Both the position numbers and the translations under genes were made by a program. DNA of 64,000 bases, taken from positions 79,608,001 through 79,672,000 of the forward strand of contig NC_091983.1 in the NCBI RefSeq assembly GCF_044704955.1, in the 5' to 3' direction. Positions 3,220 through 62,439 of the stretch are shown here, piece by piece; position 1 is the stretch's first letter, and the number at the start of each line of letters is the position of its first letter. The stretch comes from Pristiophorus japonicus. Lineage: Eukaryota. The notes beneath the pieces are model-generated. The model searched no databases, was not told the DNA's origin, and saw only the letters and a program-made list of their open reading frames with translations.

Positions 3220-4383
3220 GTAACGTGACTTGCTTTTAATGAGAAATGACTGAACCTACTGTGTTTTGCTACTTTGAGGTTTAGAATATCATTATTTGAT
3301 TGAGGAGACCGACTGTAAGATTTTTTTCCAGCTGTCATTGCATCACAATTATTATGGAGTAAGGGATGTTACTGTTACTCTTTAACTGGATTTGCATACT
3401 TCTCTCTTTTTGCCCTAATCAATGTAAAAAATGGCACTTTGTGTGATCCTTGAATTGTACTTCGATCAAATATGAATTAAAAGCTGTACATATGCAGCAA
3501 CACCAATCTCTATCTTTTGGGAACTGATTAAAACAGGTAAACCCCCTAGAATTTTCTTAAACGGGTAATGCAATTTGTCACTCTATCCTTCAATGGGACA
3601 TTGGCCTATTGTTAAAACAATTCTAATTGTGTACTGGATTATGTTAGTGTTTTCCCAATAATTCTGATGTTATATTGAAAATAATGCACATTTTGAATAA
3701 TTTTGGAAGATAGCAACAATTTGCATTTATATAGCACCTTTTAACGCAGGCATATTTCACAAGCGTTTTCAAACAACATTTGAAATTTAGAAAATAACAC
3801 TAGAATGATTAAAATGTGTTGGTGTTTGAGCATTTTAAAACAGGTGCATTTATTCTAAGTATTGTCCACATGCTAGATTAGGGGCTAGACTTTCAGTATA
3901 TCATCGCCCATTTAGCGCCCATATAAGTGCTGAGATTCAGGCTATCGTCCATTTTTGATGAAAAATGGAAACTAGCGCCCGATTATAGCCCATTTATCGC
4001 TGGCACAACTTTCGGCATACAGGAATGAGCAACATCGCCTGGCCTATTTATAAAAAAAAAAAAAAAATTTGCTGTCATCCTCGTGTAAAGCCCAGAATAC
4101 TGGTTGTAGTGGAAGCTAATGTCCGATTATCGCCCAGATTATCGCCGAGCGTTACCTTCGGCATTTCACCCATAATTCACCCAAATGATTACTGGTCCAA
4201 AAAGACGCTGAAGAAAAGCTGCAATCATCTGACCTTAACTCGGCACTATGGACGCCATTTTGTATCTCGGAGGATCTTTAATGATAGGGTGCTTGAAGCA
4301 ATTTGTGAGTGATTTTACAATCATTTAATCACATTTTAATTTGTTGAGGACAAATTAAGAAGAGATTAAAGGCGTTTATAGTG

Positions 4384-5573
4384 ATGTGACCTGTAATTTC
4401 TCAACCAGTATTGATGACTAATCACATGCTTCAGAATAGAGATGGGAGAAGGTTTATTATGTGCCCAATCAAAGAGGTGGCAGACTGCTCATGAGGAGGA
4501 TATGTTACACCCAACGCATTTACAGGGATAAGCGATCATACCTGGACTTGTCCAATAACACGTGCGTTAGAAGGCTGCGATTCCGAAAGGAGATCATCAG
4601 TGAGATATGTCAGCTAATTAAGGAAGATCTGCACCCTACCAGCACCAGCAGGACCGTACTGCCCGTTGAGGTTAAGGTTACTGCAGCACTTTCCTTCTAC
4701 GTATCAGGCTCCTTTCAGGCCTCAGCTGGCGACATTTGCGGTATCGCTCAGCATGCCACACATTGCTGCATTCGACAGGTGACTGAAGCCTTTTACGCAT
4801 GCAGGATGAACTTTATAAACTTTCCTATGGCCAGGGAGGCACAGAGTGGGAGGGCTTTGGGTTTCTAGAGAACAGCAAACTTCCCCAAGGTGCAGGGAGC
4901 AACAGACTGTATGCACATCGTCCTGCAAGCAATTTTACAGGATGCAGAGGTGTTTCGGAACCAAAAGGAATTCCACTCGCTGAATGTGCAACTCATTGTC
5001 AACCACAAACAAATAATCATAGCAGTAAATGCAAATTTTCCGGGGAGCATCCATGATGCACACATCTTGCGTGAGAGCGCTGTCCCTGACCTGTTTAAGA
5101 GTCAGCCACAAGGTCACGGTTGGATGCTGGGGGATGAAGGATATGGCCTTGCCAGTTGGCTCATGACCTCCCCTGTGTAAGCCCCAGACAGAAGCCAAGA
5201 AGTACAACAACAAAAGCCATATAGCTCCACACAATATCGTCAAAAGAGTTCTGAAGCAGTGCTTCAGTTGCCTGGACCACTCTGGAGGCAACCTACAATA
5301 TCACCCTGAGCAGGTCGATGAGTCCATTGTGGTATGTTGCATAACCTAGCTATCAGGAGAGAACAACAATTGCCAGATGGGACCGCCGGTGTCCACCTTA
5401 GGAGAGAGGGGAGGCGGAAGAGGAGAACGAGGAAGAGGACATGGACCTCGGGGAGGACGATCGGCCTGGCAGTGAACCCACCCTCCCCCTCGCACACCAC
5501 TGGAAAAGCCCTGTGTAGTTATGCAGCTGCAAAACTCTTGCATCAGCAGCTCATAAATGAATGTTTTGCGTGA
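4384..5573 (+). pseudogene. HARBI1-like DDE transposase of H1, disrupted by stops and frameshifts
   Basis: Motifs RLRFRKE, LSFYVSGSFQ, GATDCMHI (GAIDGTHI-like), FPGSIHDAHIL, MLGDEGY and CMLHNLAI across ORFs 4461-4868, 4890-5180 and 5334-5573. Confidence 0.92.
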
Positions 5574-5989: not shown

Positions 5990-8628
5990 TGGGACCAAGA
6001 TGTCTTGTAGCAGAGCACCTCAGGGGCTGCTGCTGTGGGGTGGGGGTGGGGGTGACGTTGGCAGAATGACCTCAGTGGATGGAGGAGAAGACATTTGCGA
6101 AGCAACGTCTTCCGAGTCAGAAGGAAGTTCTTCCTCTTGTCTCGCAACTGTCGTGCTGGTTGGTGGTACGGCACCTTGGGGTGCAGTGCCGTATCCTGAA
6201 ACTATTGCATGCCGCAAGGCATCGACAGAGTGGTTGTTCGCCGCATTGCCGCAACTATCTGCTCCATGGGTGCGGGGCGGGGGGGGGGGGGGGGGGAGTG
6301 TTCCAGGTGTTGGGTGGGTCCAGAGCCGGGGGGTGGGGGCACTCTCTTGGGATGGGGGGTAGGCTGTTTGGGGCTGGGATTGGGAGAGACTTCTTCACTC
6401 GGGGAGTTGTTGGCCTGTGGGGTTCCCTGCCGCGGAGAGTTGTTGATGCCAGTTCATTGGATGTGTTCGGGAGGGAGTTGGATGTGGTCCTTGCGGCGTG
6501 GGGGGGAGGTGCAGGGGTGGGTGATCAGCCATGATCTTGTTGAATGGTGGTGCAGGCTCGAAGGGCCGAATGGCCTAATCCACCTATTTTCTATGTTTCT
6601 ATGTTTCTATGCCTTCCGTTATTCTTGCAGACAGTGTGGCAATGTTACTGGTCAACCCACCAAGCGCCTGGAGAAGCTCTCGACCTATGTCGATGCTCGC
6701 CCTCGATGGTGACACCATGTCCTCATTGACATCTGCCTGTCGCAGCATGTGCCTACCTCGCTGACTCAACCTCCGCGGGGTTGGCATGGGCACTGGGCGA
6801 CTTGGAATGGCCTGTTGCAAGCCACTTGCCCCCGCTACTTCATCCGTTGAGGATGACATGGTCGCAGGTACCACAGATGAGATATCAGGCTCGGATTCGT
6901 CCTCCTCCTCCTCCTCACTTTGCTGCTCGTCACCCGCGGTGAGCACAACCTGCAGCGGTACTGATGTTGCTGCAGGGGCCTCCCGTTGCTTCTGGGGAGC
7001 TGGAAAACATAATTGAGGTTATTAGAAGAGAAAGGGAGACATGAGAATGCTTGTGCTGCGCAGGCATATGTACGAGGAGCAGCACTACTGCAATAAATCT
7101 GACTGAGAGACGTTACATATGATTAATGTGAGAATACAGAAGAGTACAGAAGCTGCATGCATAACATTGCATCATTCATATATTACAATCAAATGCCATT
7201 AAATTACTTTAAAGTACCATTGGTTTACCACTGCTTTACACATTACTCACATGGTGCAACAACGGGATCTGCACCACCACGGGTGGCAGAACGATTATGG
7301 GTGCCCACTTACGCTACAGCACTTTCCTCCAGATCGGTGCGAGAGTACAGCTCAGCAGGCCCTCCTCCGGTCCGCCTCTGCTCTGCCTGATTCTTAGATA
7401 TCTTCCTCTGCAAACAGGACAAGAGCATGGCATAAGCTAATTGACTAGGTACTATTACGGAAACACAACAGATATTGTAATCCACAACTAGTCACCCCAC
7501 ATGCTATTCATCATTAATGTTATATGCTAATACGGTTTGTATCCACAATGGATGCATGGTTATAACATCTACGTTCAGAGAAAATATTTAATAAGATTGT
7601 GTTTATGAACTAATGCTTGACACCAAACATCTCGCGTACAATCTCCAGGAAAGGCCCCATCCACGAGCCGTGCCATTCAGCACCTGAGGAGGGGTAGGTG
7701 GTTTATTTGAATCGATGGAGGTCCCCCGGGGGGGTGGGAGGAGGGGAATCAGGATCGCTGGTGAGCTCTGCAATGACAGGACTGTAATGGGAGGGGGCAC
7801 CGTGTCCCTGGGCTGTGCTCGGAGACCTCCTTGTGGCCGGAGCTAATGTCCCAAAGTGTCCCAGGCAGACAGTGAGCCAGGGCAGCTCTCCCCCAGTCCA
7901 GGCTGAGTCACTGTGTGATTGACAGAAGCCGGAGAGATTCACACAGTCTGGGTAAAGCTGACCAGACCCCTCAGTGCTCAGTCGTGTCCCATCCACCAAC
8001 GTAACCAAAAAGGAGACGGTGCCCAAGTTAAAGAGTTACTCACAGCACACAAGAATTCTCCTTCTAAGCTAAAGTGTTAGAAATGCCAAATGTTTGCGGT
8101 CTGTCCATTTCCAGTCATTCCTTTGGCCACAATTTTCGATCAAAGTCTTTAAATATTAATAATTGATGCTGTTGATTAAATGTAAGGCATCTCAGCAACA
8201 TTAGACTTAAAGGGCACAGGTTCTGACCCCAGTCCAAATCTTAGCTGGGAAGCTACCCAATATTACCCAGCTTAATTACAATCCAGCAGATTTACATTCT
8301 AATTAATGAGTCAGTGCATCATTACAATTAAAAATGTAATAATTGAATAATTACATAATTAACTGTTCCATCGCTTGCGGCACTGGTCTGCCTCTCTCCT
8401 ATCGTGGGCCACCGATGATACCAGGGTGGCGATATTGCCCCATATTTTTTGATAAATGCCGGGGGGGGGGGGTGGGGAAGGTTTCCCATGCCCACCCCGG
8501 GTTAATTGGCTCCACTGATTTTCCACTTCATTCACCAAGGCTTCCTTAGCCTTATCAGAGATGGCTTTCGCCCTCATTCTTCCTGAAATATTCTGCTGCA
8601 TACTATCTGTAGATTCTTCGTTAGACAT
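5990..8628 (-). pseudogene. Myb/SANT-like (trihelix) DNA-binding gene of H1, three exons (8628-~8359, 7407-7251, 6999-~5990)
   Basis: Exon 1 has ...QKIWGNIA...QCRKRWN. Exon 2 (RKISKNQAEQRRTGGGP) is bounded by ttgcAG and GTGAGT. Exon 3 follows tttccAG and continues in phase into ...EQQSEEEEEDES. Interrupted by a CR1 insertion. Confidence 0.85.
6269..6608 (+). mobile_element. 5'-truncated CR1 LINE 3' end with A-to-G hypermutation, inserted in H1 Myb exon 3
   Basis: (CTATGTTT)n tail and CR1 3' UTR. ATG is duplicated at 6266-6268 and 6609-6611. The body aligns to CR1 41231-41773 with many A>G changes. Confidence 0.9.
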
Positions 8629-9949
8629 CTTGACCACTCCACACACTTCTTTCCACCTTACTTCTCTCTCTCCCTCTCTTTCTGTTTTCTGAGCATGAGC
8701 AGATGACCCCTGACCTCCAGATTCGCGGGAAAAGTTCTTTGCTGAAAAAAAAACACGCATGTGCAGAACGGCTGTTGCTATGGACACCAGCCTTGCATGA
8801 CTGATTACATCACTAAGGCCCATTTCACATCGTTAAGGCTATCACCCAAATTAAAAAGGTGAAACTAGCGGTTTTTAAAATGGGCGATATTCCAGCAATC
8901 CTGAAAAATAAAAAAAGCACTAAGGCCTGAAATATCGCCTATTTTTAGGAGATAGCAATCATAGTGGAAAGTCTAGCCCATGGTGTAAAATTAGAATTTT
9001 TTCATCATGCAGTAAGCGAAAAATTCCTTATTCCACAGATGGCATTTCTCAGAATATTTTAGTTGTTGGCAATGAGTGTTAACCTTTTCTGGTCTTGGTT
9101 CCATTACAGCAGAACTTGGAAACCTATTGGCCATGGATAATTGTACAAGTATGTATTTCTGTGCTGAACTTGCTGCTTTTAGCTCTGTAAGGTTCCAATT
9201 ATTTTTGGTCTGATGTTTCATAGAATCATAAAATCTTGCAGCACAGGTGAAGGCCTTTTGGCCCATTATGCCAGTGCTGCCTCTTTGAAAGAGCTTTCCA
9301 ATTTAGTCCCAAATGGAACAGTTGTGTTTTTACTAACACTAATACACATTTTACAAGTCTTGAGTTTTATAAAACTGGAATTTATATAGTCAGATATGCA
9401 ACATTTGCAAATGCACTGCAACCAGTGTGAAACTGGCTTCTCCAGAGTGATCACTAATATTTTTTAGTGAAGCACAATGGCCAGCGTGTGACAATATTGC
9501 TCACTAGCCATACCTGGAAGTTTGAGGATATTTAATGCATAGATTTATTTAAGTTATATGGCACGGTTTTTCAAAAAAGTAAAATAGTAAGCAGCCTATT
9601 TAAATTGATAAAACCAGAAGCAGGTCCTTCTCTTTCCAGATGAGAGATTTTTGTTCACTAGATGCTTTTAGCTCATTGAGATAGATATTCATTAGTATAC
9701 TGTTGTAAGAAAATCTAGAAATATATTTTGTAAATGAAAGGAAAGGACAATGTTGGAAAATCAGAATAGCAGTAGAAAATCTAAGTGATAGAAGCAAGAA
9801 TCAAGGGACAAGAAGAACCTGAATTCAAATGCAGCAATGAATGGGTTTAAAGGAAAGGAAAACATCTTTTGAGAAGGACAAAGCTGTTTTATGGACAAAG
9901 GACATGTAAAATGAGCTAAAACCCAAAATAGAAGAATACAATGATGTAC

Positions 9950-38024: not shown

Positions 38025-38956
38025 CAGGTTGAGTATCCGAAATTCGGAGTTCCAAAATTCAGAATATTCCGGAATCCGGACACCGGGCTGATCCGTGGCG
38101 AGGTCGTCCGGAAAGCGGGAAATGTTCTGAAATCCGGACTCCCTCCGCCATGGCGGCCCGACCTCTCCCTGACCTTCGGCGGCCCGACCTCGCTCCAGCC
38201 CGGCCCTACCTCACCCCAGCCCTCGGCGGCCTGACCTCGCCCCAGCCCTCGGCAGCCCGACCTCACCCTGGCCTGACCTCGCCCCAGCCCTAGGTGGCCC
38301 TACCTCGCACCGGCCCTCGGCGGCCCGACCTCGCTCCAGCCCGGCCCTACCTCGCCCCGGCCCTCGGCGGCCTGACCTCGTGGCAGCCCGACCTCACCCT
38401 GGCCTGACCTCGCCCCAGCCCTAGGTGGCCCGACCTCACCCCGACCCGACCTCGCCTCGACCCGACCTCGCTCCAGCCCGGCCCTACCTCGCCCCGGCCC
38501 TTGGCGGCCTGACCTCGCCCCGGCCCTTGGCGGCCTGACCTCGCCCCGGCCCTTGGCGGCCCTACCTCGCCCCGGCCCTTGGCGACCTGACCTCGTTCCG
38601 GCCTGACTTAGCCCCAGCCCTCGGTGGCTTGACCTCGTCCCGGTCTGACCTCGCCCCGGCCCTCGGTGGCCCAATCTTGCGCCAACCCTTGGCGGCCCGA
38701 CTTTGCCGTGATTTCACCCGCTCCGACTTCGCCGCGACTTCGCCCTGGCCCTTGGCGGCTCGACCTTGCCCTGGCACCCCTCTCCCCCTCCCCCCTCTCC
38801 CTCTCCCCATTACCTTGGCGGGCCGACCTCACCCCCTTACCTCGACTGCCGACCCCACCTATCTCAGCCCAGGCAAAGACGTTCCAAAATCCGGAAATAC
38901 CCAGAATCCAGAACGACCTCGGTCCCGAGGTTTCTGGATTTTGGACACTCAACCTG
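38025..38956. mobile_element. Tc1/mariner(pogo)-type MITE with an internal GC-rich minisatellite
   Basis: TA|CAGGTTGAGT...ACTCAACCTG|TA. Confidence 0.88.
38155..38775. repeat. ~25-bp GC-rich minisatellite (CCTGACCTCGCCCCGGCCCTTGGCGG-like)
   Basis: Tandem imperfect copies visible directly. Confidence 0.85.
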
Positions 38957-40944: not shown

Positions 40945-43635
40945 ATAAGAACATAAGAAATAGTAACAAGAGTAGGCAATATGGCCCCTCGAGCTGGCTC
41001 CGCCATTCAATATCATGGCTCCACTTCCCTGCCCACTCCCCATAACCCCTTATCCCCTTATCGTTTAAGAAACTGTCTATTTCTGTCTTAAATTTATTCA
41101 ATGTCCCAGCTTCCACAGCTCTCTGAGGCAGCGAATTCCACTGAGTTACAACCCTCTAAGAGAAGAAATTTCTCCCCTCAGTTTTAAATGAACGGCCCCT
41201 TATTCTATTATCATGCCCTCTAGTTCTAGTTTTGGTCTCCTAATCTGAGGAAGGACATTCTTGCTATTGAGGAAGTGCAGCGAAGGTTCACCAGACTGAT
41301 TCCCGGGATTGCAGGACTGACATATGAAGAAATACTCGATCGACTAGGCTTATATTCACTGGAATTTAGAAGAATGAGAGGGGATCTCATAGAAACATAT
41401 AAAATTCTGACGGGATTGGACAGGTTAGATGCAGGAAGAATGTTCCCGATGTTGGGGAAGTCCAGAACCAGGGGTCACAGTCTAAGGATAAGGGGTAAGC
41501 CATTTAGGACCAAGATGAGGAGAAACTTCTTCACTCAGAGAGAATTGTGAACCTGTGGAATTCTCTACCACAGAAAGTTGTTGAGGCCAGTTTGTTAGAT
41601 ATATTCAAAAGGGAGTTAGATGTGGCCCTTATGGCTAAAGGGATCAAGGGGTATGGAGAGAAAGCAGGAATGGAGTACTAAAGTTGCATGGTCAGCCATG
41701 ATCATGTTGAATGGTGGTGCAGGCTCGAGGGGCCGAATGGCCTACTCCTGCACCTATTTTCTATGTTTCTATGTCTCCCCCATCAGTGGAAACATCCACT
41801 CTGCATCCACCTTGTCAAGCCCCTTCATAATCTTACACGTTTCGATAAGATCATCTTTCATTCTTCTGAATTCCAGTGAGTAGAGGCCTAACCCACTCAA
41901 CCTTTCCTCATAAGTCAACCCCCTCATCCCCGGAATCAACCTAGTGAACCTTCTCTGAACTGCCTCCAAAGCAAATATATCCTTTCGTAAATATGGAAAT
42001 CAAAACTGCACGCAGTATTCCAGCTTCACCAATACCCGTGTAGCTGTAGCAAGACTTCCCTGCTTTTATACTCCATCCCCTTTGCAATAAAGGCCAACAT
42101 TCCATTTGCCTTCCTGATTACTTGCTGTAACTGCATACTATCCTTTTGTATTTCATGCACAAGTACCCCTAGGTCCCGCTGTACTGCAGCACTTTGCAAT
42201 CTTTCTCCATTTAAATAATAACTTGCTCTTTGATTTTTTTCTGCCAAAGTGCATGACCTCTCACTTTCCAACATTATACTCCATCTGCCAAATTTTTGCC
42301 CACTCACTTAGCCTGTCTATGTTCTTTTGCAGATTTGTTGTGTCCTCCTCGCACATTGCTTTTCCTCCTATCTTTGTATCGTCAGCAAACCTAGTCACGT
42401 TACACTCAGTTCCTTCTTCCAAGTCGTTAAATATAGATTGCAAATAGTTGGGGTCCTAGCACTGATCCCTGTGGCACCCCACTAGTTACTGATTGCCAAC
42501 CAGCGAATGAACCATTTATTCCAACTCTCTGTTTTCTGTTAGTTAGCCAATCCTCTATCCATGCTAATATATTACTCCCAACCCCGTGAACTTTTATCTT
42601 GTGCAGTAACCTTTTATGTGGCACCATGTCAAATGCCTTCTGAAAGTCCAAATACACCACATCCACTAGTTCCCCTTTATCCACACTGTTCGTTTCATCC
42701 TCAAAGAATTCCAGAAAATTTGTAAAACATGACTTCCCCTTCATAAATCCATGCTGACTCTGCCTGACCGAATTTTGCTTTTCCAAATGTCCTGCTACTG
42801 CTTCTTTAATAATGGATTCTAACACTTTCCCAACCACAGATGTTAGGCTAACTGGTCTATAGTTTCCTGCTTTTTGTCTGCCTCCTTTTTTAAATAGGGG
42901 CGTTACATTTGCAGTTTTCCAATCTGCTGGGACCTCCCCAGAATCCAGGGAATTTTGGTAAATTACAACCAATGCATCCACAATCCCTGCCGTTACTTCT
43001 CTTAAAACCCTAGGAAGCAAGCCATCAGGTCCAGGGGATTTAGCTGCCTTCAGTCCCATTATCTTACTGAGTACCAGTGATTGTGATTGTGTTAAGTTCC
43101 TCTCCCCCTATAGCCCCTTGACTATTCACTGTTGGGATATTGTTAGTGTCCTCTACCGTAAAGACTGATAAAAAATATTTGTTCAGAATTTCTGCCATCT
43201 CCATGTTCCCCATTACTAATTCCCCGGTCTCATCCTCTAAGGGACCAACATTTACTTTATCCACTCTTTTATATACCTATAGAAACTCTTGCTATCTGTT
43301 TTTATATTTTGTGCTAGTTTATTTTCATAGTCTATCTTCCCTTTCTTAATTTTTTAGTTATTTTTTGCTGGCTTTTAAAAGCTTCCCAATTTTCTGTCCT
43401 CCCACTAGTTTTGGCCACTTTGTATGCCCTTTTTTTAATTGGACACCGTCCTTTATTTCTTTAGTTAGCCACAGATCGCTATCTTTTCTCTTATACCTTT
43501 TCCTCCTCACTGGAATATATTTTTCTTGAGAGTTGTGAAATATCTCCTTAAATGTACACCACTGTTCAACAACCGTCCTACACTTTAATCTATTTTCCCA
43601 GTCCACTTTAGCCAACTCTGCCCTCAAACCTTCAT
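40945..43635 (-). mobile_element. CR1 LINE (ORF2 RT, 5'-truncated)
   Basis: KSPGPDG, NYRPVSLTS, YLDFQKAFD, GVPQGSVLGP, FADDTK; (CTTATGTT)n tail at ~40945. Confidence 0.93.
41231..41773 (+). mobile_element. CR1 3' fragment nested in the opposite orientation
   Basis: QRRFTRLIPG...RNFFTQR plus a (CTATGTTT)n tail. Host sequence ctagttctag/tctccccc resumes after it. Confidence 0.9.
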
Positions 43636-46423: not shown

Positions 46424-47515
46424 AGAGTGGCCATGGTTTTTAGGTCACCAACAAACTGTGTGGTTGAAGTGTTCTTGCCTGCTGTGTACAGTCCATTGAA
46501 ATAGTTTTATTATCACTGGGCTGTACAGAACTTCACCAGACATTGGGGGATTCTGGCTCCAGCAAATGTCACTGTTGAATAAAGGTAGCACTGTAATACA
46601 AAATGGGGCAGTTTCAACAGCATTAGCAGCTAGTTTCTCAGAACTGCATCAGGAAGCACTTTTGGAAATAAAGATAACATTAGTTTCTATTGACGTTGCA
46701 AGTAATTATAGAGCTACTTCTACGAGCTGTAACTTAATTTCCACAGTGGCGTAGCACACTTGTGCCACAGTGCACTGTAACATTGAAGAGATGGATGCAG
46801 CTTCTTGACTGTGATCCAACCTATAGGGTCTGATCAATCTCGCCTGATTTCTTTTCAAGGATGATCGTGAACACAGTCTAGGTGTGTCCAGCTAACCAGG
46901 AAAAAAACAGGCATGTCACATAAATGAGGAGAGGATTTTAAAATTAAAACCTTCAGCCACAGCAATGAAAAATTATTTATGATCGGTTATTGCTCTTTGT
47001 TGCTTGGTATGTACAATATATGCTGTCATTAATTAATTATATCTATCGCTAAGTAATTCATCATCTCCGTGGTGTTTCTGAGGCTGCATCATAAGACGTA
47101 CTGTTTTATAGCAACGGTTGTGTTATGAGGAAAGTGTTAACACGAAGTAAGTGTGACACTAACTGGAAGTTCACGCTATATGGAAAACTTTAAATTGGTG
47201 AGGCAGAGAAAGTCTGAGGAACTGAGCTTGACAAACTGTGACTAGACAAACCAAGGCAGGGGCTGGAAGGATAGGAAGAAAACCGAGGGAAAACAACAAA
47301 ATGGAATATTTAAAATGATGACTGTTGAATACTGCTTTGAAAAGCTCCAAGACATCGGTAAGCCCTGTAAACCAGTGGGGCAGAAGGACATTAATCAAGA
47401 TTTTGCTGGTCTTGTATTAGAGGCTGGGTGCAGTTAAGGCATTAACCAGTGGGATTTGAGCGGGGCTGAAGAAACAAGTGTCGAATATTGCGAGGGCCCA
47501 GGCCTGACCCCAATG

Positions 47516-50500
47516 GAAACATAGAAACATAGAAAATAGGTGCAGGAGTAGGCCATTCGGCCCTTTGAGCCTACACCAATATTCAATATGATCATGGCTG
47601 ATCATGCATTTCAGTACTCCATTCCTGCTTTCTCTCCATGCTCCTTGATCCCTTTAGCCGTAAGGGCCACATCTAATTCCCTTTTGAATATATCTAACGA
47701 ACTGGCCTCAACAACTTTCTGTGGTAGAGAATTCCACAGGTTCACAATTCTCTGAGTGAAGAAGTTTCTCCTCATCTCGGTCCTAAATGGCTTACCCCTT
47801 ATCCTTAGACTATGACCCCTGGTTCTAGACTTCCCCAACATCAGGAACATTCTTCCTGCATCTAACCTGTCCAATCCCGTCAGAATTTTAAATGTTTCTA
47901 TGAGATCCCCTCTCATTCTTCGAAATTCCAGTGTATACAAGCCTAGTCGATCCAGTCTTTCTTCATATGTCAGTCCTGCCATCCCGAGAATCAGTCTGGT
48001 GAACCTTCGCTGCACTGTCTCAATAGCAAGAATGTCCTTCCTCAGATTAGACAACCAAAACTGTACACAATATTGAGGGTGTGGCCTCACCAAGGCCCTG
48101 TACAAATGCAGTAAGACCTCCCTGCTCCTATATACAAATCCTCTCGCTATGAAGGCCAACATGCCATTTGCCGCCTTCACTGCCTACTGTACCTGCATGC
48201 CAACTTTCAATGACTGATGTACCATGACACCCAGGTCTCGTTGCACCTTCCCTTTTACTAATCTGTCACCATTCAGATAATCTGCCTTCCTGTTTTTGCC
48301 ACCAAAGTGGATAACCTCACATTTATCTACATTATGCTGCATCTGCCATGCATTTGCCCACTCGCCTAACCTGTCCAAGTCACCCTGCAGTCTCTTAGCA
48401 TCCTCCTCACAGCTCACACTGCCACCCAGCTTAGTGTCATCTGCAAACTTGGAGATATTACATTCAATTCCTTCGTCCAAATCATGAATGTATATTGTAA
48501 ATAGCTGGGGTCCCAGCGCTGAACCTTGCGGTACCCTACTAGTCACTGCCTGCCATTCTGAAAAGGATCCGTTTATTCCTACTCTTTGCTTACTGTCTGC
48601 CAACCAGTTCTCTATCCACGTCAATACATTACCCCCAATATCATGTGCACACCAATCTCTTGTGTGGGACCTTGAAAGTCCAAATACATCACATCCGCTG
48701 GTTCTCCCTTGTCCACTCTACTAGTTACATCCTCAAAACATTCTAGAAGATTTGTGAAGCATGATTTCCTTTTCATAAATCCATGCTGACTTGGACCGAT
48801 CCTGTCATGCTTTCCAAATACACTGCTATTACATTTTTAATAATTGATTCCAACATTTTCCCCACTACTGATGTCAGGCTACAATTTCCTGTTTTCTCTC
48901 CCTCCTTTTTTAAAAAGTGGTGTTACATTAGCTACCCTTCAGTCCATAGGAACTGATCTAGAGTCTATAGAATGTTTGAAAATGACCACCAATGCATCCA
49001 ATATTTCTAGGGCCACTTCCTTGGGTACTCTGGGATGCAAACTATCAGGCCCTGGGGATTTATCGGCCTTCAGGCCCATCAATTTCCCTGACACAATTTC
49101 CTGACTAATAAGGATTTCCTTCAGTTCATCCTTCTTGCTAGACCCTCGGTTCCCTATTATTTTTAGAAGGTTATTTGTGTCTTCCTTAGTGAAGACAAAA
49201 CCAAAATATTTGTTCAATTGGTCTGCCATTTTTTAGTTCCCATTATAAATTCACCTGATTCTGACTGCAAGGGACCTACATTTGTCTTCACTAATCTTTT
49301 TCTCTTCACATATCTATAGAAGCTTTTGCAGTCAGTTCTTATGTTCCCTGCAAGCTTACTCTCATACTCTATTTTCCACCTCCTAATTATACCCTTTGTC
49401 CTCCTCTGCTGAATTCTAAATTTCTCCCAGTTCTCCAGTTTGCTGGTTTTTCTGTCCATTTTATATGCCTCTTCCTTGGATTTAACACTATCCCTAATTT
49501 CCCTTGTAAGAACATAAGAACATAAGAATTAGGAACAGGAGTAGGCCATCTAGCCCCTCAAGCCTGCTCCGCCACTCAACAAGATCATGGCTGATCTGGC
49601 CGTGGACTCAGCTCCACTTACCCGCCTGCTCCCCATAACTCTTAATTCCCTTATTGGTTAAAAATCTATCTATCTGTGATTTGAATACATTCAATGAGCT
49701 AGCCTCAACTGCTTCCCTGGGCAGAGAATTAGCCATGATTGAGCCACCTTCCCCGTTTTATTTTTACGCCAGACAGGGATGTACAATTGTTGAAATTCAT
49801 CCATGTGATCTTTAAATGTCTGCCATTGCCTATCCACCGTCAATCCTTTAAGTATCATTCGCCAGTCTATCCTAGCCATTTCACGTCTCATACCATCAAA
49901 GTTACCTTTCTTTATGTTCAGGACACTAGTCTCTGATTTAACTGTGTTACTCTCCACCTTAAGAATTCCACCATATTATGGTCACTCTTCCCCAAGGGTC
50001 CTCGCACAACAAGATTGCTAATTAATCCTCTCTCATTACACAACACCCAGCCTAGGATGGCCAACTCTCTAGTTGGTTCCTCGACATATTGGTCCAGAAA
50101 ACCATCCCTTATACACTCCAAGAAATCCTCCTCCACCGTATTGCTACCAGTTTGGTTAGCCCAATCTATATGTAGATTAAAGTCACCCATGATAATTGCT
50201 GTACCTTTAATGCACGCATCCCTAATTTCCTGTTTGATGCCATCCCCAACCTCACTACTACTGTTTGTTGGTCTGTACTCAACTCCCACTAGCGTTTTCT
50301 GCCCTTTGGTGTTCTGCAGCTCTACCCATATAGATTCCACATCATCCAAGCTAATGTCCTTCCTTACTATTGCGTTAATCTCCTCTTTAACCAGCAAAGC
50401 TACCCCACCTCCTTTTCCTTACCCCTGGATGTTGAGTTCCCAGCCTTGGTCACCCTGGAGCCATGTCTCCGTAATCCCAATTATATCATCTCTGTTAACA

Positions 50501-57740: not shown

Positions 57741-59749
57741 ACATAGAAACATAGAAACATAGAAAATAGGTGCAGGAGTAGGCCATTCGGCCCTTCTAGC
57801 CTGCACCGCCATTCAATGAGTTCATGGCTGAACATTCAACTTCAGTACCCCATTCCTGCTTTCTCGCCATACCCCTTGATCCCCCTAGCAGTAAGGACCT
57901 CATCTAACTCCTTTTTGAATATATTTAGTGAATTGGCCTCAACAACTTTCTGTGGTAGAGAATTCCACAGGTTCACCACTCTCTGGGTGAAGAAGTTCCT
58001 CCGCATCTCGGTCCTAAATGGCTTACCCCTTATCCTTAGACTGTGACCCCTGGTTCTGGACTTCCCCAACATTGGGAACATTCTTCCTGCATCTAACCTG
58101 TCTAACCCCGTCAGAATTTTATATGTTTCTATGAGGTCCCCTCTCATTCTTCTGAACTCCAGTGAATACAAGCCCAGTTGATCCAGTCTTTCTTGATAGG
58201 TCAGTCCCGCCATCCCGGGAATCAGTCTGGTGAACCTTCGCTGCACTCCCTCAATAGCAAGAATGTCCTTCCTCAGGTTAGGAGACCAAAACTGTACACA
58301 ATACTCCAGGTGTGGCCTCACCAATGCCCTGTACAACTGTAGCAACACCTCCCTGCCCCTGTACTCAAATCCCCTTGCTATGAAGGCCAACATGCCATTT
58401 GCTTTCTTAACCGCCTGCTGCAACTGCATGCCAACCTTCAATGACTGATGTACCATGACACCCAGGTCTCTTTGCACCTCCCCTTTTCCTAATCTGTCAC
58501 CATTCAGATAATAGTCTGTCTCTCTGTTTTTACCACCAAAGTGGATAACCTCACATTTATCCACATTATACTTCATCTGCCATGCATTTGCCCACTCACC
58601 TAACCTATCCAAGTCGCTCTGCAGCCTCACAGCATCCTCCTCGCAGCTCACACTGCCACCCAACTTAGTGTCATCCGCAAATTTGGAGATACTACATTTA
58701 ATCCCCTCATCTAAATCATTAATGTACAGTGTAAACAGCTGGGGCCCCAGCACAGAACCTTGCGGTACCCCACTAGTCACTGCCTGCCCTTCTGAAAAGT
58801 ACCCATTTACTCCTACTCTTTGCTTCCTGTCTGACAACCAGTTCTCAATCCATGTCAGTACACTACCCCCAATCCCATGTGCTCTAACTTTGCACATCAA
58901 TCTCTTGTGTGGGACCTTGTCGAACGCCTTCTGAAAGTCCAAATATACCACATCAACTGGTTCTCCCTTATCCACTCTACTGGAAACATCCTCAAAAAAT
59001 TCCAGAAGATTTGTCAAGCATGATTTCCCTTTCACAAATCCATGCTGACTTGGACCTATCATGTCACCTCTTTCCAAATGCACTGCTATGACATCCTTAA
59101 TAATTGATTCCATCATTTTACCCACTACCGATGTCAGGCTGACCGGTCTATAATTCCCTGTTTTCTCTCTCCCTCCTTTTTTAAAAAGTGGGGTTACATT
59201 GGCTACCCTCCACTCCATAGGAACTGATCCAGAGTCAATGGAATGTTGGAAAATGACTGTCAACGCATCCACTATTTCCAAGGCCACCTCCTTAAGTACT
59301 CTGGGATGCAGTCCATCAGGCCCTGGGGATTTATCGGCCTTCAATCCCATCAATTTCCCCAACACAATTTCCCGGCTAATAAGGATTTCCCTCAGTTCCT
59401 CCTCCTTACTAGACCCCCCGACCCCTTTTATAACCGGAAGGTTGTTCGTGTCCTCCTTCGTGAATACCGAACCAAAGTACTGGTTCAATTGGTCCGCCAT
59501 TTCTTTGTTCCCCGTTATGACTTCCCCTGATTCTGACTGCAGGGGACCTACATTTGTCTTTACTAACCTTTTTCTCTTTACATATCTATAGAAACTTTTG
59601 CAATCCGTCTTAATGTTCCCTGCAAGCTTCTTCTCATACTCCATTTTCCCTGCCCTAATCAAACCCTTTGTCCTCCTCTGCTGAGTTCTAAATTTCTCCC
59701 AGTCCCCAGGTTCGCTGCTATTTCTGGCCAATTTGTATGCCACTTCCTT
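57741..59749 (-). mobile_element. Young 5'-truncated CR1 with an uninterrupted 633-aa ORF2 segment (57842-59743)
   Basis: All RT motifs are intact through the native stop. 3' UTR and (CTATGTTT)n tail present. GAA duplicated at both ends. Confidence 0.95.
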
Positions 59750-59808
59750 GAACGGCGATATATTTCCAAGTCAGGATCGTGTTTAACTTGGAGGGGCACT
59801 TGCAGGTA

Positions 59809-60990
59809 ATAGAAACATAGAAAATAGGTGCAGGAGTAGGTCATTCGGCCCTTCTAGCCTGCACCGCCATTCAATGAGTTCATGGCTGAACATGCAATTT
59901 CAGTACCCCATTCCTGCTTTCTCGCCATACCCCTTGATCCCCCTAGTAGTAAGGACTTCATCTAACTCCTTTTTGAATATATTTAGTGAATTGGCCTCAA
60001 CAACTTTCTGTGGTAGAGAATTCCACAGGTTCACCACTCTCTGGGTGAAGAAGTTCCTCCTCATCTCGGTCCTAAATGGCTTACCCCTTCTCCTTAGACT
60101 GTGTCCCCTGGTTCTGGACTTCCTCAACATTGGGAACATTCTTCCTGCATCTAACCTGTCTAACCCCGTCAGAATTTTAAACGTTTCTATGAGTCCCCTC
60201 TCATTCTTCTGAACTCCAGTGAATACAAGCCCAGTTGATCCAGTCTTTCTTGATAGGTCAGTCCCGCCATCCCGGGAATCAGTCTGGTGAACCTTCGCTG
60301 CACTCCCTCAATAGCAAGAATGTCCTTCCTCAGGTTAGGAGACCAAAACTGTACACAATACTCCAGGTGTGGCCTCACCAAGGCCCTGTACAACTGTAAC
60401 AACACCTCCCTGCCCCTGTACTCAAATCCCCTCACTATGAAGGCCAACATGCCATTTGCTTTCTTAACCACCTGCTGTACCTGCATGCCAACCTTCAATG
60501 ACTGATATACCATGACACCCAGGTCTCGTTGCACCTCCCCTTTTCCTAATCTGTCACCATTCAGATAATAGTCTGTCTCTCTGTTTTTACCACCAAAGTG
60601 GATAACCTCACATTTATCCACATTATAACTTCATCTGCCATGCGTTTGCCCACTCACCTAACCTATCCAAGTCGCTCTGCAGCCTCATAACATCCTCCTC
60701 GCAGCTCACACTGCCACCCAACTTAGTGTCATCCGCAAATTTGGAGATACTACATTTAATCCCCTCATCTAAATCATTAATGTACAGTGTAAACAGCTGG
60801 GGCACCAGCACAGAACCTTGCGGTACCCCACTAGTCATTGCCTGCCATTCTGAAAAGTCCCCATTTACTCCTACTCTTTGCTTCCTGTCTGACAACCAGT
60901 TCTCAATCCATGTCAGCACACTACCCCCAATCCCATGTGCTTTAACTTTTCACATTAATCTCTTGTGTGGGACCTTGTCGAAAGCCTTCT
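59809..60990 (-). mobile_element. Sister CR1 copy, 5'-truncated and frameshifted
   Basis: Near-identical to 57741-58930, with scattered SNPs and indels. Confidence 0.93.
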
Positions 60991-62439
60991 GATGGTGTTC
61001 CCATGCGCCTGCTGCCCTTCTTCTAGGTGGTGGAGGTCGCAGGCTTGGGAGGTGCTGCTGAAGAAGTTTTGGCGTGTTGCTGCAGTGCAACTTGTCGATG
61101 GTATACACTGCAGCCACGGTGCGCCGGTGGTGGAGGAAGTGAATGTTTAAGGTGGTCGACGGGGTGGCAATCAAATGGCTGCTTTGTCCTGGATGGTGTC
61201 GAGCTTCTTGAATGTTGGAGCTGCACTCGTCCAGTCAAGTGGAGAGTATTCCATCATACTCCTGACTTATGCCTTGTAGATGGTGGAATGGCTTTGGGGA
61301 GTCAGGAGGTGAGACACTCGCCAAGGAATACCCAGCCTCTGACCGGCTCTTGTTGCCACAGTATTTATGTGGCTGGTCCAGTTAAGTTTCTGGTCAATGG
61401 TGATGGTGGGGGATTCGGTGATGGTAATGTCGTTGAATGTCAAAGGGCGGTGGTTAGACTCTCACTTGTTGGAGATAATCATTGCTGGCACTTGTGTGGC
61501 ACGAATGTTAATTATCAGCCCAAGTCTGAATGTCATCTAGGTCTTGCTGCATCCGAGCATGGACTGCTTCATTATCTGAGGAGCTGCGAGTGGCACTGAA
61601 CACTGTGCAGTCATCAGTGAACATCCCCACTTCTGACCTTTATGATGGTGAGAAGGTCATTGATGAAGCAGCTGAAGATGGTTGGGCCGAGGACACTGCC
61701 CTGAGGAACTCGTGCAGCGAAGTCCTAGGGCTGAGATGATTGACCTCCAAGAACCACAACCATCTTGCTTTGTGCTAGGTATGACTCCAGCCAGTGGAGA
61801 GTTTTTCCCCTGATTCCCATTTACTTCAGTTTTACTCGTGCTCCTTGATGCCACACTCAAAATGCTGCCTTGATGTCAAGAACAGTCACTCCTCACCTCT
61901 GGAATTCAACCTTTTGTCCATGTTTGGACTAAGGCTGTAATGAGGCCTGGAGCCTAGTGGACCTGGCTAAACCCAAACTGGGCATTAGTGAACTGTTTAG
62001 ATGGAAAATAAGATAAGCTACTTAAGTTTGTAGGAGTTAATTTCTAAGAAAAGTCATGCAATACAAGAAAGTTCATACTAAAATTATTACTGGCTTTTAT
62101 ATATTATATCAAAGATGAGATGCAAGAAAAATATTAAGTATTTTAACATTTAAAATCGGTTTGACTTTAGGGGAAACTATTAACTGTTCTGGGTAAAACC
62201 TGGTGTATTTAACATTTTAGAAAGCTCCAGTTAATTATAACTCTGCTTTAATTCTCCATGTAAGCAATTAAAGGCTCCCTGTGAGAGTTTCTGGAGCATA
62301 ATTGCATGATTATGACCCTGGACTTCTAACTAAATACTTGAAAGACTCTAGCCATGTGATTTTAAAAATAACATGCAAGATCAGACCAGGAGCAAAACAT
62401 TGCCAAAACCTTGAGACTGATATCATTATAAATCAGACC

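Follow-up and report, generated by a model that had tools for sequence, protein, structure and literature searches.

The window, a 64,000-nucleotide stretch of DNA (G000:C7:79608001-79672000) within a 5.9-Gb genome, holds a G-rich CR1 segment that raises the question of how a LINE-derived sequence came to carry a dense burst of A>G changes on one strand. By family search and alignment, the segment is a 5'-truncated copy of an edited composite family, in which only the 3' CR1 part is present (6267-6611, plus strand), and it is alignable over this length to five ordinary CR1 copies elsewhere in the window. An ATG flanks it on both sides and may be a 3-nt duplication or microhomology. Its parts, all on the plus strand, are a G run (6275-6297) that, in alignment to the family, is expanded from the founder's run of six G, itself a product of A>G changes; the converted body (6298-6522), which spans the end of CR1 ORF2 and the beginning of the 3' UTR and carries the A>G changes; and an unedited CR1 3' end (6523-6611) with a stem-loop at about 6549-6584 and 8-nt tail repeats at 6588-6611. 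The copy also has a private 28-nt deletion near 6500 and a 3-nt deletion in the stem-loop.

Compared with the CR1 at 41400-41780 of the window, the body of this copy showed 48 A>G and 2 G>A changes; the burst is thus real, although the original prediction, at about 30 changes, had counted too few. The reference copy used there, an ordinary unedited CR1 (41223-41778, plus strand), belongs to a sister subfamily and is not the closest parent. Against a closer parent consensus, 50 of 70 A were changed to G, with 1 G>A and 1 T>C, and there were 14 non-A>G differences, several of them due to the misaligned G run. Changed A numbered 11/12 after T, 13/14 after A and 10/14 after C, compared to only 16/30 after G, in agreement with the earlier observation that surviving A mostly follow a G. 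The tail was nearly untouched, as had been noted (1/18 A changed in 6523-6611 relative to the parent consensus), and the drifted peptide read from the converted segment, RDFFTRGVVGLWGSLPRRVV, does lie in frame within 6070-6534. The host element is of Harbinger type and retains a transposase remnant (4440-5177, plus strand; DDE_Tnp_4 at 4869-5177) and a Myb/SANT-like ORF remnant (8362-8832, minus strand; a weak Pfam hit below cut-off). Comparison with 11 homologous stretches bore out that its flanks, which had been described as unaffected, contain no surplus of A>G (122 A>G, 140 T>C, 132 G>A and 162 C>T). Elsewhere, self-comparison of the window revealed a tandem repeat with a unit of roughly 130-140 nt at 38148-38870, and several nested reverse-strand CR1 copies lie at 47513-49730 and 57743-60992; two reverse-strand copies, at 57751-58934 and 59809-60992, are 97% alike across 1.2 kb.

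A genome search with the edited stretch returned 883 candidates. All 40 that were scored matched, and the 39 besides the window copy were 92-97% identical to it and shared its edits, which overturns the claim that the window copy is itself the edited, mobilised transcript. The multi-copy, G-rich CR1 subfamily that the original prediction had named as an alternative source of the changes does exist, and its existence moves the editing event to the founder of the family rather than removing it. An exact edited 27-mer matched 1,002 times (483 and 519 on the two strands), the exact unedited 27-mer matched 42,003 times, and the reversed control of each matched nowhere; the CR1 parent accordingly has at least 42,003 copies by exact 27-mer. 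An exact probe for the edited deletion junction matched 807 times. When such counts are corrected for the proportion of sampled copies with an exact match (8/29; 17/29 and 13/29), a rough family size of 1,400-3,600 copies results.

The G-rich family is a non-autonomous composite retroposon, VNTR-MITE-like-deleted-CR1, of more than 1,000 copies. From 5' to 3' it comprises a VNTR with units of 37-38 bp, a piece of about 155 nt that matches dispersed hairpin-rich repeats at 66-75% (MITE-like is a descriptive label), 333 nt from the start of CR1 ORF2 and the last 380 nt of CR1. The two CR1 parts correspond to positions 717-1049 and 3413-3790 of the parent consensus, joined with a 2-nt microhomology at the junction; 2.36 kb of ORF2 including the reverse transcriptase is missing and the start of the endonuclease is degraded, so that ORF2 is not intact. 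The 5' truncation points of the copies are many and lie mostly in the VNTR; long copies start inside the VNTR, of which they hold up to about 14 kb. Random 5' truncation together with 5' inversion are marks of LINE-driven insertion; among 22 copies checked, none had convincing target-site duplications. Individual copies varied in structure: L055 has a 5' inversion, in L018 the VNTR is joined directly to the edited 5' segment with opposite-strand VNTR units nearby, and at L106 and L108 (G000:C20:16755000-16774499) one family copy is attached to about 14 kb of VNTR (about 350 units), an array that was already present in the RNA or else grew once the copy had inserted. The 5' end of the family was not reached, as arrays of 32, 36, 155 and about 350 units all begin within the VNTR. 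Across 46 loci, shared upstream sequence other than VNTR was limited to one 87-nt pair at 77%, and a search for a pol III small-RNA head gave no Rfam match in L002 and L033, whose sequence stops short of the true 5' end.

The parent is a LINE that we take, from its domain layout, to belong to the CR1 clade, presumably of the type found in cartilaginous fish, which it resembles. It has an ORF2 with an APE endonuclease and a reverse transcriptase and an ORF1 with a weak esterase-like match (in copy L097, RVT_1 at 1e-31, Exo_endo_phos at 1e-8 and, below the cut-off, Lipase_GDSL_2 at 4e-4). Its 3' end is a stem-loop followed by short tandem tail repeats, and its copies are frequently 5'-truncated.

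We compared the consensus of 40 family copies with that of the parent, built from 30 copies for the 3' part and 8 copies for the 5' part. A>G changes had occurred at 147/231 A (84/126 in the 3' part and 63/105 in the 5' part), whereas T>C had occurred at only 2/155 T. A>G made up 147/169 of all differences, and the remaining 22 included 7 G>A, 2 T>C, 2 C>T, 1 A>C and 3 T>G. The direction of change, A to G, is fixed by the 42,003 versus 1,002 exact matches and by the loss of endonuclease motif residues. With 7 G>A against 147 A>G, a sense-strand G>A cluster of the APOBEC type is absent. In the family core, 140/196 A were converted, and conversion depended strongly on the 5' neighbour (T 29/29, A 54/68, C 28/40, G 29/59; p=1.4e-7), with no clear effect of the 3' neighbour (G 50/66, A 51/68, T 25/38, C 14/24; p=0.35). 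In 590 nt, 0 TA dinucleotides remain. This 5' order is that of ADAR, as Table 3 of PMC3113232 gives U>A>C>G for both ADAR1 and ADAR2. In ordinary parent copies A>G is also rarer after G (22/2590 versus about 3% elsewhere, all variants), and depletion after G is therefore not specific on its own.

Conversion was confined to the CR1-derived sequence of the element. In 6 alignments of the MITE-like piece, A>G (21) did not exceed G>A (24) or T>C (23), and the VNTR keeps CA and AA. In the family tail, 1/18 A was changed against 13.6 expected from the core rates, given as observed versus expected since a core rate of 1.0 after T leaves the probability undefined. The tail may have been spared through selection for recognition by the reverse transcriptase, through a position outside the duplex, or through a template switch. 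One separately edited CR1 copy, L139, has a largely edited tail (10/15), yet inserted once.

Editing of CR1 was not limited to this family. For a part of ORF2 that the family lacks, we designed a 35-nt probe in which four TA were replaced by TG; it matched at 10 places (L134-L143, on C1, C3, C10, C12, C15, C16, C22 and C28 of G000), compared to 0 for the control and a chance expectation estimated at about 0.03 from 42,003 copies and about 3% per site. All ten are undeleted CR1 copies, each with an A>G tract of its own of 65-970 nt, and their main alignments contained 33-165 A>G versus 1-12 T>C, L135, L137 and L138 being weaker. With the probe excluded, the pooled tracts held 460 A>G, the next class reaching 27. 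By 5' neighbour the pooled tracts gave T 122/140, A 127/163, C 97/186 and G 114/353 under a scoring that favours the A>G pattern, and the order was unchanged under a density rule (146/219, 158/275, 111/283 and 130/488). The sets of edited sites disagreed at 23-50% of shared A (32 pairs; L135 and L138 had too few sites), compared to 4% of parental A sites within the family (406 pairs, maximum 7%), showing that L134-L143 are separate events. Since the probe covers one position only, the genome likely holds many more edited CR1 copies. L134 and L136 have differing edit sets, but their best tracts both end at parent position 3476, with L142 ending nearby at 3511; possibly, one donor locus was edited in separate RNA molecules.

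One of the ten, L140, is an inverted CR1 pair inside a split CR1 (G000:C15:11418203-11421237). Its antisense CR1 arm is preceded by a leader of 857 nt and separated by a short loop from the sense arm, after which comes the tail. The antisense arm carried 56/105 A>G changes (5' T 16/20, A 20/29, C 17/30, G 3/20) and the sense arm 55/123, on the same strand as those of the antisense arm. The loop and the 857-nt leader, by contrast, retain TA, and conversion of the sense arm begins where the partner arm ends. This pattern is what editing of a folded RNA predicts, unlike polymerase error. L140 is known from the assembly; the short-read runs X1, X3 and X4 have no cover over its loop and possibly come from another individual.

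Long duplexes are edited by ADAR, inosine is read as G when copied, and CR1 proteins act on the 3' end of their element. We consider it probable, at roughly 0.86, that a single founder RNA was edited, likely by ADAR, and was then copied into the germline and amplified, likely by the CR1 reverse transcriptase. The idea of an ADAR-type edited CR1 RNA fixed in the germline with its 3' end spared is thereby supported by evidence beyond that from which it was first drawn. In this sequence of events, a long read-through transcript would have contained the CR1 part and an inverted CR1 partner and folded back on itself, and ADAR would have deaminated about 70% of the paired A. Priming at the intact 3' stem-loop and tail would have followed, with inosine turned into G on reverse transcription, and the edited genomic copy would have become a master whose later copies inherited the edits and were truncated at random 5' points. 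Edited duplexes usually arise from intramolecular folding, according to the accessible text of PMC13445718. Counting against this explanation, no edited partner arm was present within 1.5 kb at 9/10 independent loci, and L1 RNA was not edited by ADAR1 in HeLa assays, in the portion of PMC5224506 available.

The closest alternative, which overlaps with this explanation and leads to the same outcome, is that ADAR edited the founder in a trans duplex with an antisense CR1 transcript. With at least 42,003 parent copies, antisense CR1 RNA was likely abundant. Moreover, no inverted CR1 partner was seen in the family copies examined, and an edited antisense arm occurred in 1/379 CR1 alignments, that of L140 alone. 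However, 5' truncation would remove an upstream partner, and in human data cis-antisense duplexes are seldom edited, as far as the accessible part of PMC13445718 reports. L140 demonstrates the cis route in this genome. We regard the trans route as a possible but distinctly less probable origin.

Improbable, in our estimate, is another process acting on one strand, such as misincorporation by the CR1 reverse transcriptase, an error-prone second-strand polymerase, or deamination by ADAR of the DNA strand in a hybrid. Sense-strand A>G with a preference for 5' T or A resembles the WA pattern of polymerase eta; furthermore, ADAR activity on DNA in hybrids has reportedly been described. However, such processes should ignore the borders of a duplex, whereas in L140 the arms are converted and the loop and leader are not, and in the family the MITE-like part and the tail are spared. 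A polymerase also fits poorly with the conversion of A preceded by C (28/40 in the core), and deamination of the cDNA strand would read as T>C, a change present at only 2/155 T.

Even less credit can be given to a gradual origin of a G-rich subfamily, with changes accruing from master to master through drift, GC-biased conversion or an A>G bias linked to transcription, a reading that the data largely refute. Consistent with such an origin, the family is multi-copy, one site segregates A and G (22 versus 29 copies, with weak subfamily linkage), and variants shared among parent copies (L064-L093) lean towards A>G (183/8039 versus T>C 100/6996) and tend not to follow a 5' G, although these counts are non-independent and located in coding sequence. 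This lean may reflect low-level editing shaping CR1 master lineages, or coding constraint. However, variants private to single copies among 30 parent copies were strand-symmetric (A>G 87/7685, T>C 72/6867; p=0.63), and a ratio of 147 A>G to 2 T>C, with A>C seen once and T>G three times, does not fit GC-biased conversion. Furthermore, in 82/82 sampled family alignments (59 from copies already collected and 23 from copies selected because they carry a parental A, with at least one place represented twice), G was present at the great majority of 145 sites, leaving 0 intermediates. Two sets of loci that have a single parental A at a junction (11 and 12 loci), taken up as candidate precursors, proved to be ordinary edited copies. 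Exact-match probes, which could miss a diverged single copy, gave 0 matches each for the fully unedited deletion junction, for an edited but undeleted form and for the edited CR1 without the MITE-like piece. No precursor, whether unedited or partly edited, came to light, and the founder event is therefore a reconstruction based on the consensus comparison. Within the family, back-changes were near background (G>A 2.2-2.3% at edited sites versus 1.5-1.6% at ancestral non-CpG G), and private A>G showed no clear excess that would indicate ongoing editing (26/5632 versus T>C 36/9350). Copies diverged from their own consensus by 3.1-3.6% in the family and 5.5% in the parent, both sets being top matches and hence ages biased low.

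Finally, hyper-editing of the window copy alone before insertion, or a sequencing artefact beside the G run, is refuted: a long G run does lie just 5' of the stretch and no short-read contig bridges the window copy's own junctions, but the edited 27-mer is found 1,002 times on both strands, copies without a long G run bear the same edits, and the edited form, at the level of the family, recurs in short-read contigs. These contigs, from 3/4 runs (X1, X3 and X4; one sample, its type guessed to be DNA), contain fragments of the edited form that are 83-116 nt long and show 4-10 differences, and thus remove the assembly artefact raised in the original prediction for the family as a whole. The remaining run, X5 (organism B), covered the CR1 tail only and was not counted as absence.

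The edited family differs from its parent in having 36 CpG versus 8 and four G-quadruplex motifs versus none, and 0/310 and 21/255 of its 26-nt windows lie within 2 mismatches of CR1. It is conceivable, though we hold it only tentatively, that ADAR, which guards against double-stranded repeat RNA, has repeatedly mutated LINEs in the germline here and in a single step turned a defective CR1 into an element that CR1 antisense or small RNAs no longer match, although it retains the tail required by CR1 proteins, and that this escape and the gain of CpG and G-quadruplexes drove its amplification. Under the founder-editing explanation, an RNA edit was made heritable at scale, with about 150 substitutions in one step followed by more than 1,000 copies, and the family would be a fossil record of ADAR activity and its neighbour preference in germline or early-embryo cells. 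It would also imply that a LINE reverse transcriptase can copy an inosine-rich, folded RNA, and that new repeat families can arise by a saltational route and would then be mistaken for very old, diverged ones by ordinary subfamily clocks. Two effects of ADAR thereby become testable, namely restriction of LINEs by editing (not seen in HeLa, in the available portion of PMC5224506) or their release from silencing, and an A>G-collapsed scan of repeat libraries could reveal more such families.

In the literature searched, mostly non-subscription, we found no report of a retroposon family founded by an A>G-hyperedited RNA, and the nearest parallels each share part of the pattern. The VNTR composites SVA, LAVA, PVA and FVA are likewise non-autonomous, composite and LINE-dependent, with VNTR units of 35-50 bp, in the parts of PMC5753468 and PMC3287187 available. 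Of the SVA makeup (hexamer, Alu-like, VNTR, HERV-K and poly(A)), only a VNTR is present here, in an unrelated context; Alu, HERV-K and poly(A) were not seen, the 3' end is that of CR1 with its stem-loop and 8-nt repeats, and the LINE part is internally deleted and hyper-converted, so the likeness is one of analogy only. APOBEC-edited LTR retrotransposons also carry heritable clusters of deaminase hypermutation, but, in the accessible text of PMC4866542 and PMC2873906, these are G>A changes from cDNA deamination, found in screens of LTR elements with A>G filtered out, whereas here A>G lies on the RNA strand in ADAR context. Ultra- or hyper-edited inverted-repeat RNAs likewise reach a very high fraction of edited A in fold-back pairs and, as far as the available part of PMC3197674 describes them, are transient; here the pattern sits in genomic DNA. 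ADAR-type A>G hypermutation was reportedly described in RAV-1 U3 by Felder in 1994 and in an ALV inverted repeat by Hajjar and Linial in 1995. Such avian retroviral DNA similarly shows clustered A>G at about half of the A, tied to inverted repeats (accessible portions of PMC12925331 and PMC8586724). Unlike these cases, the events described here concern a non-LTR element and are fixed in the germline, at least 11 of them are present, and one became the master of more than 1,000 copies.
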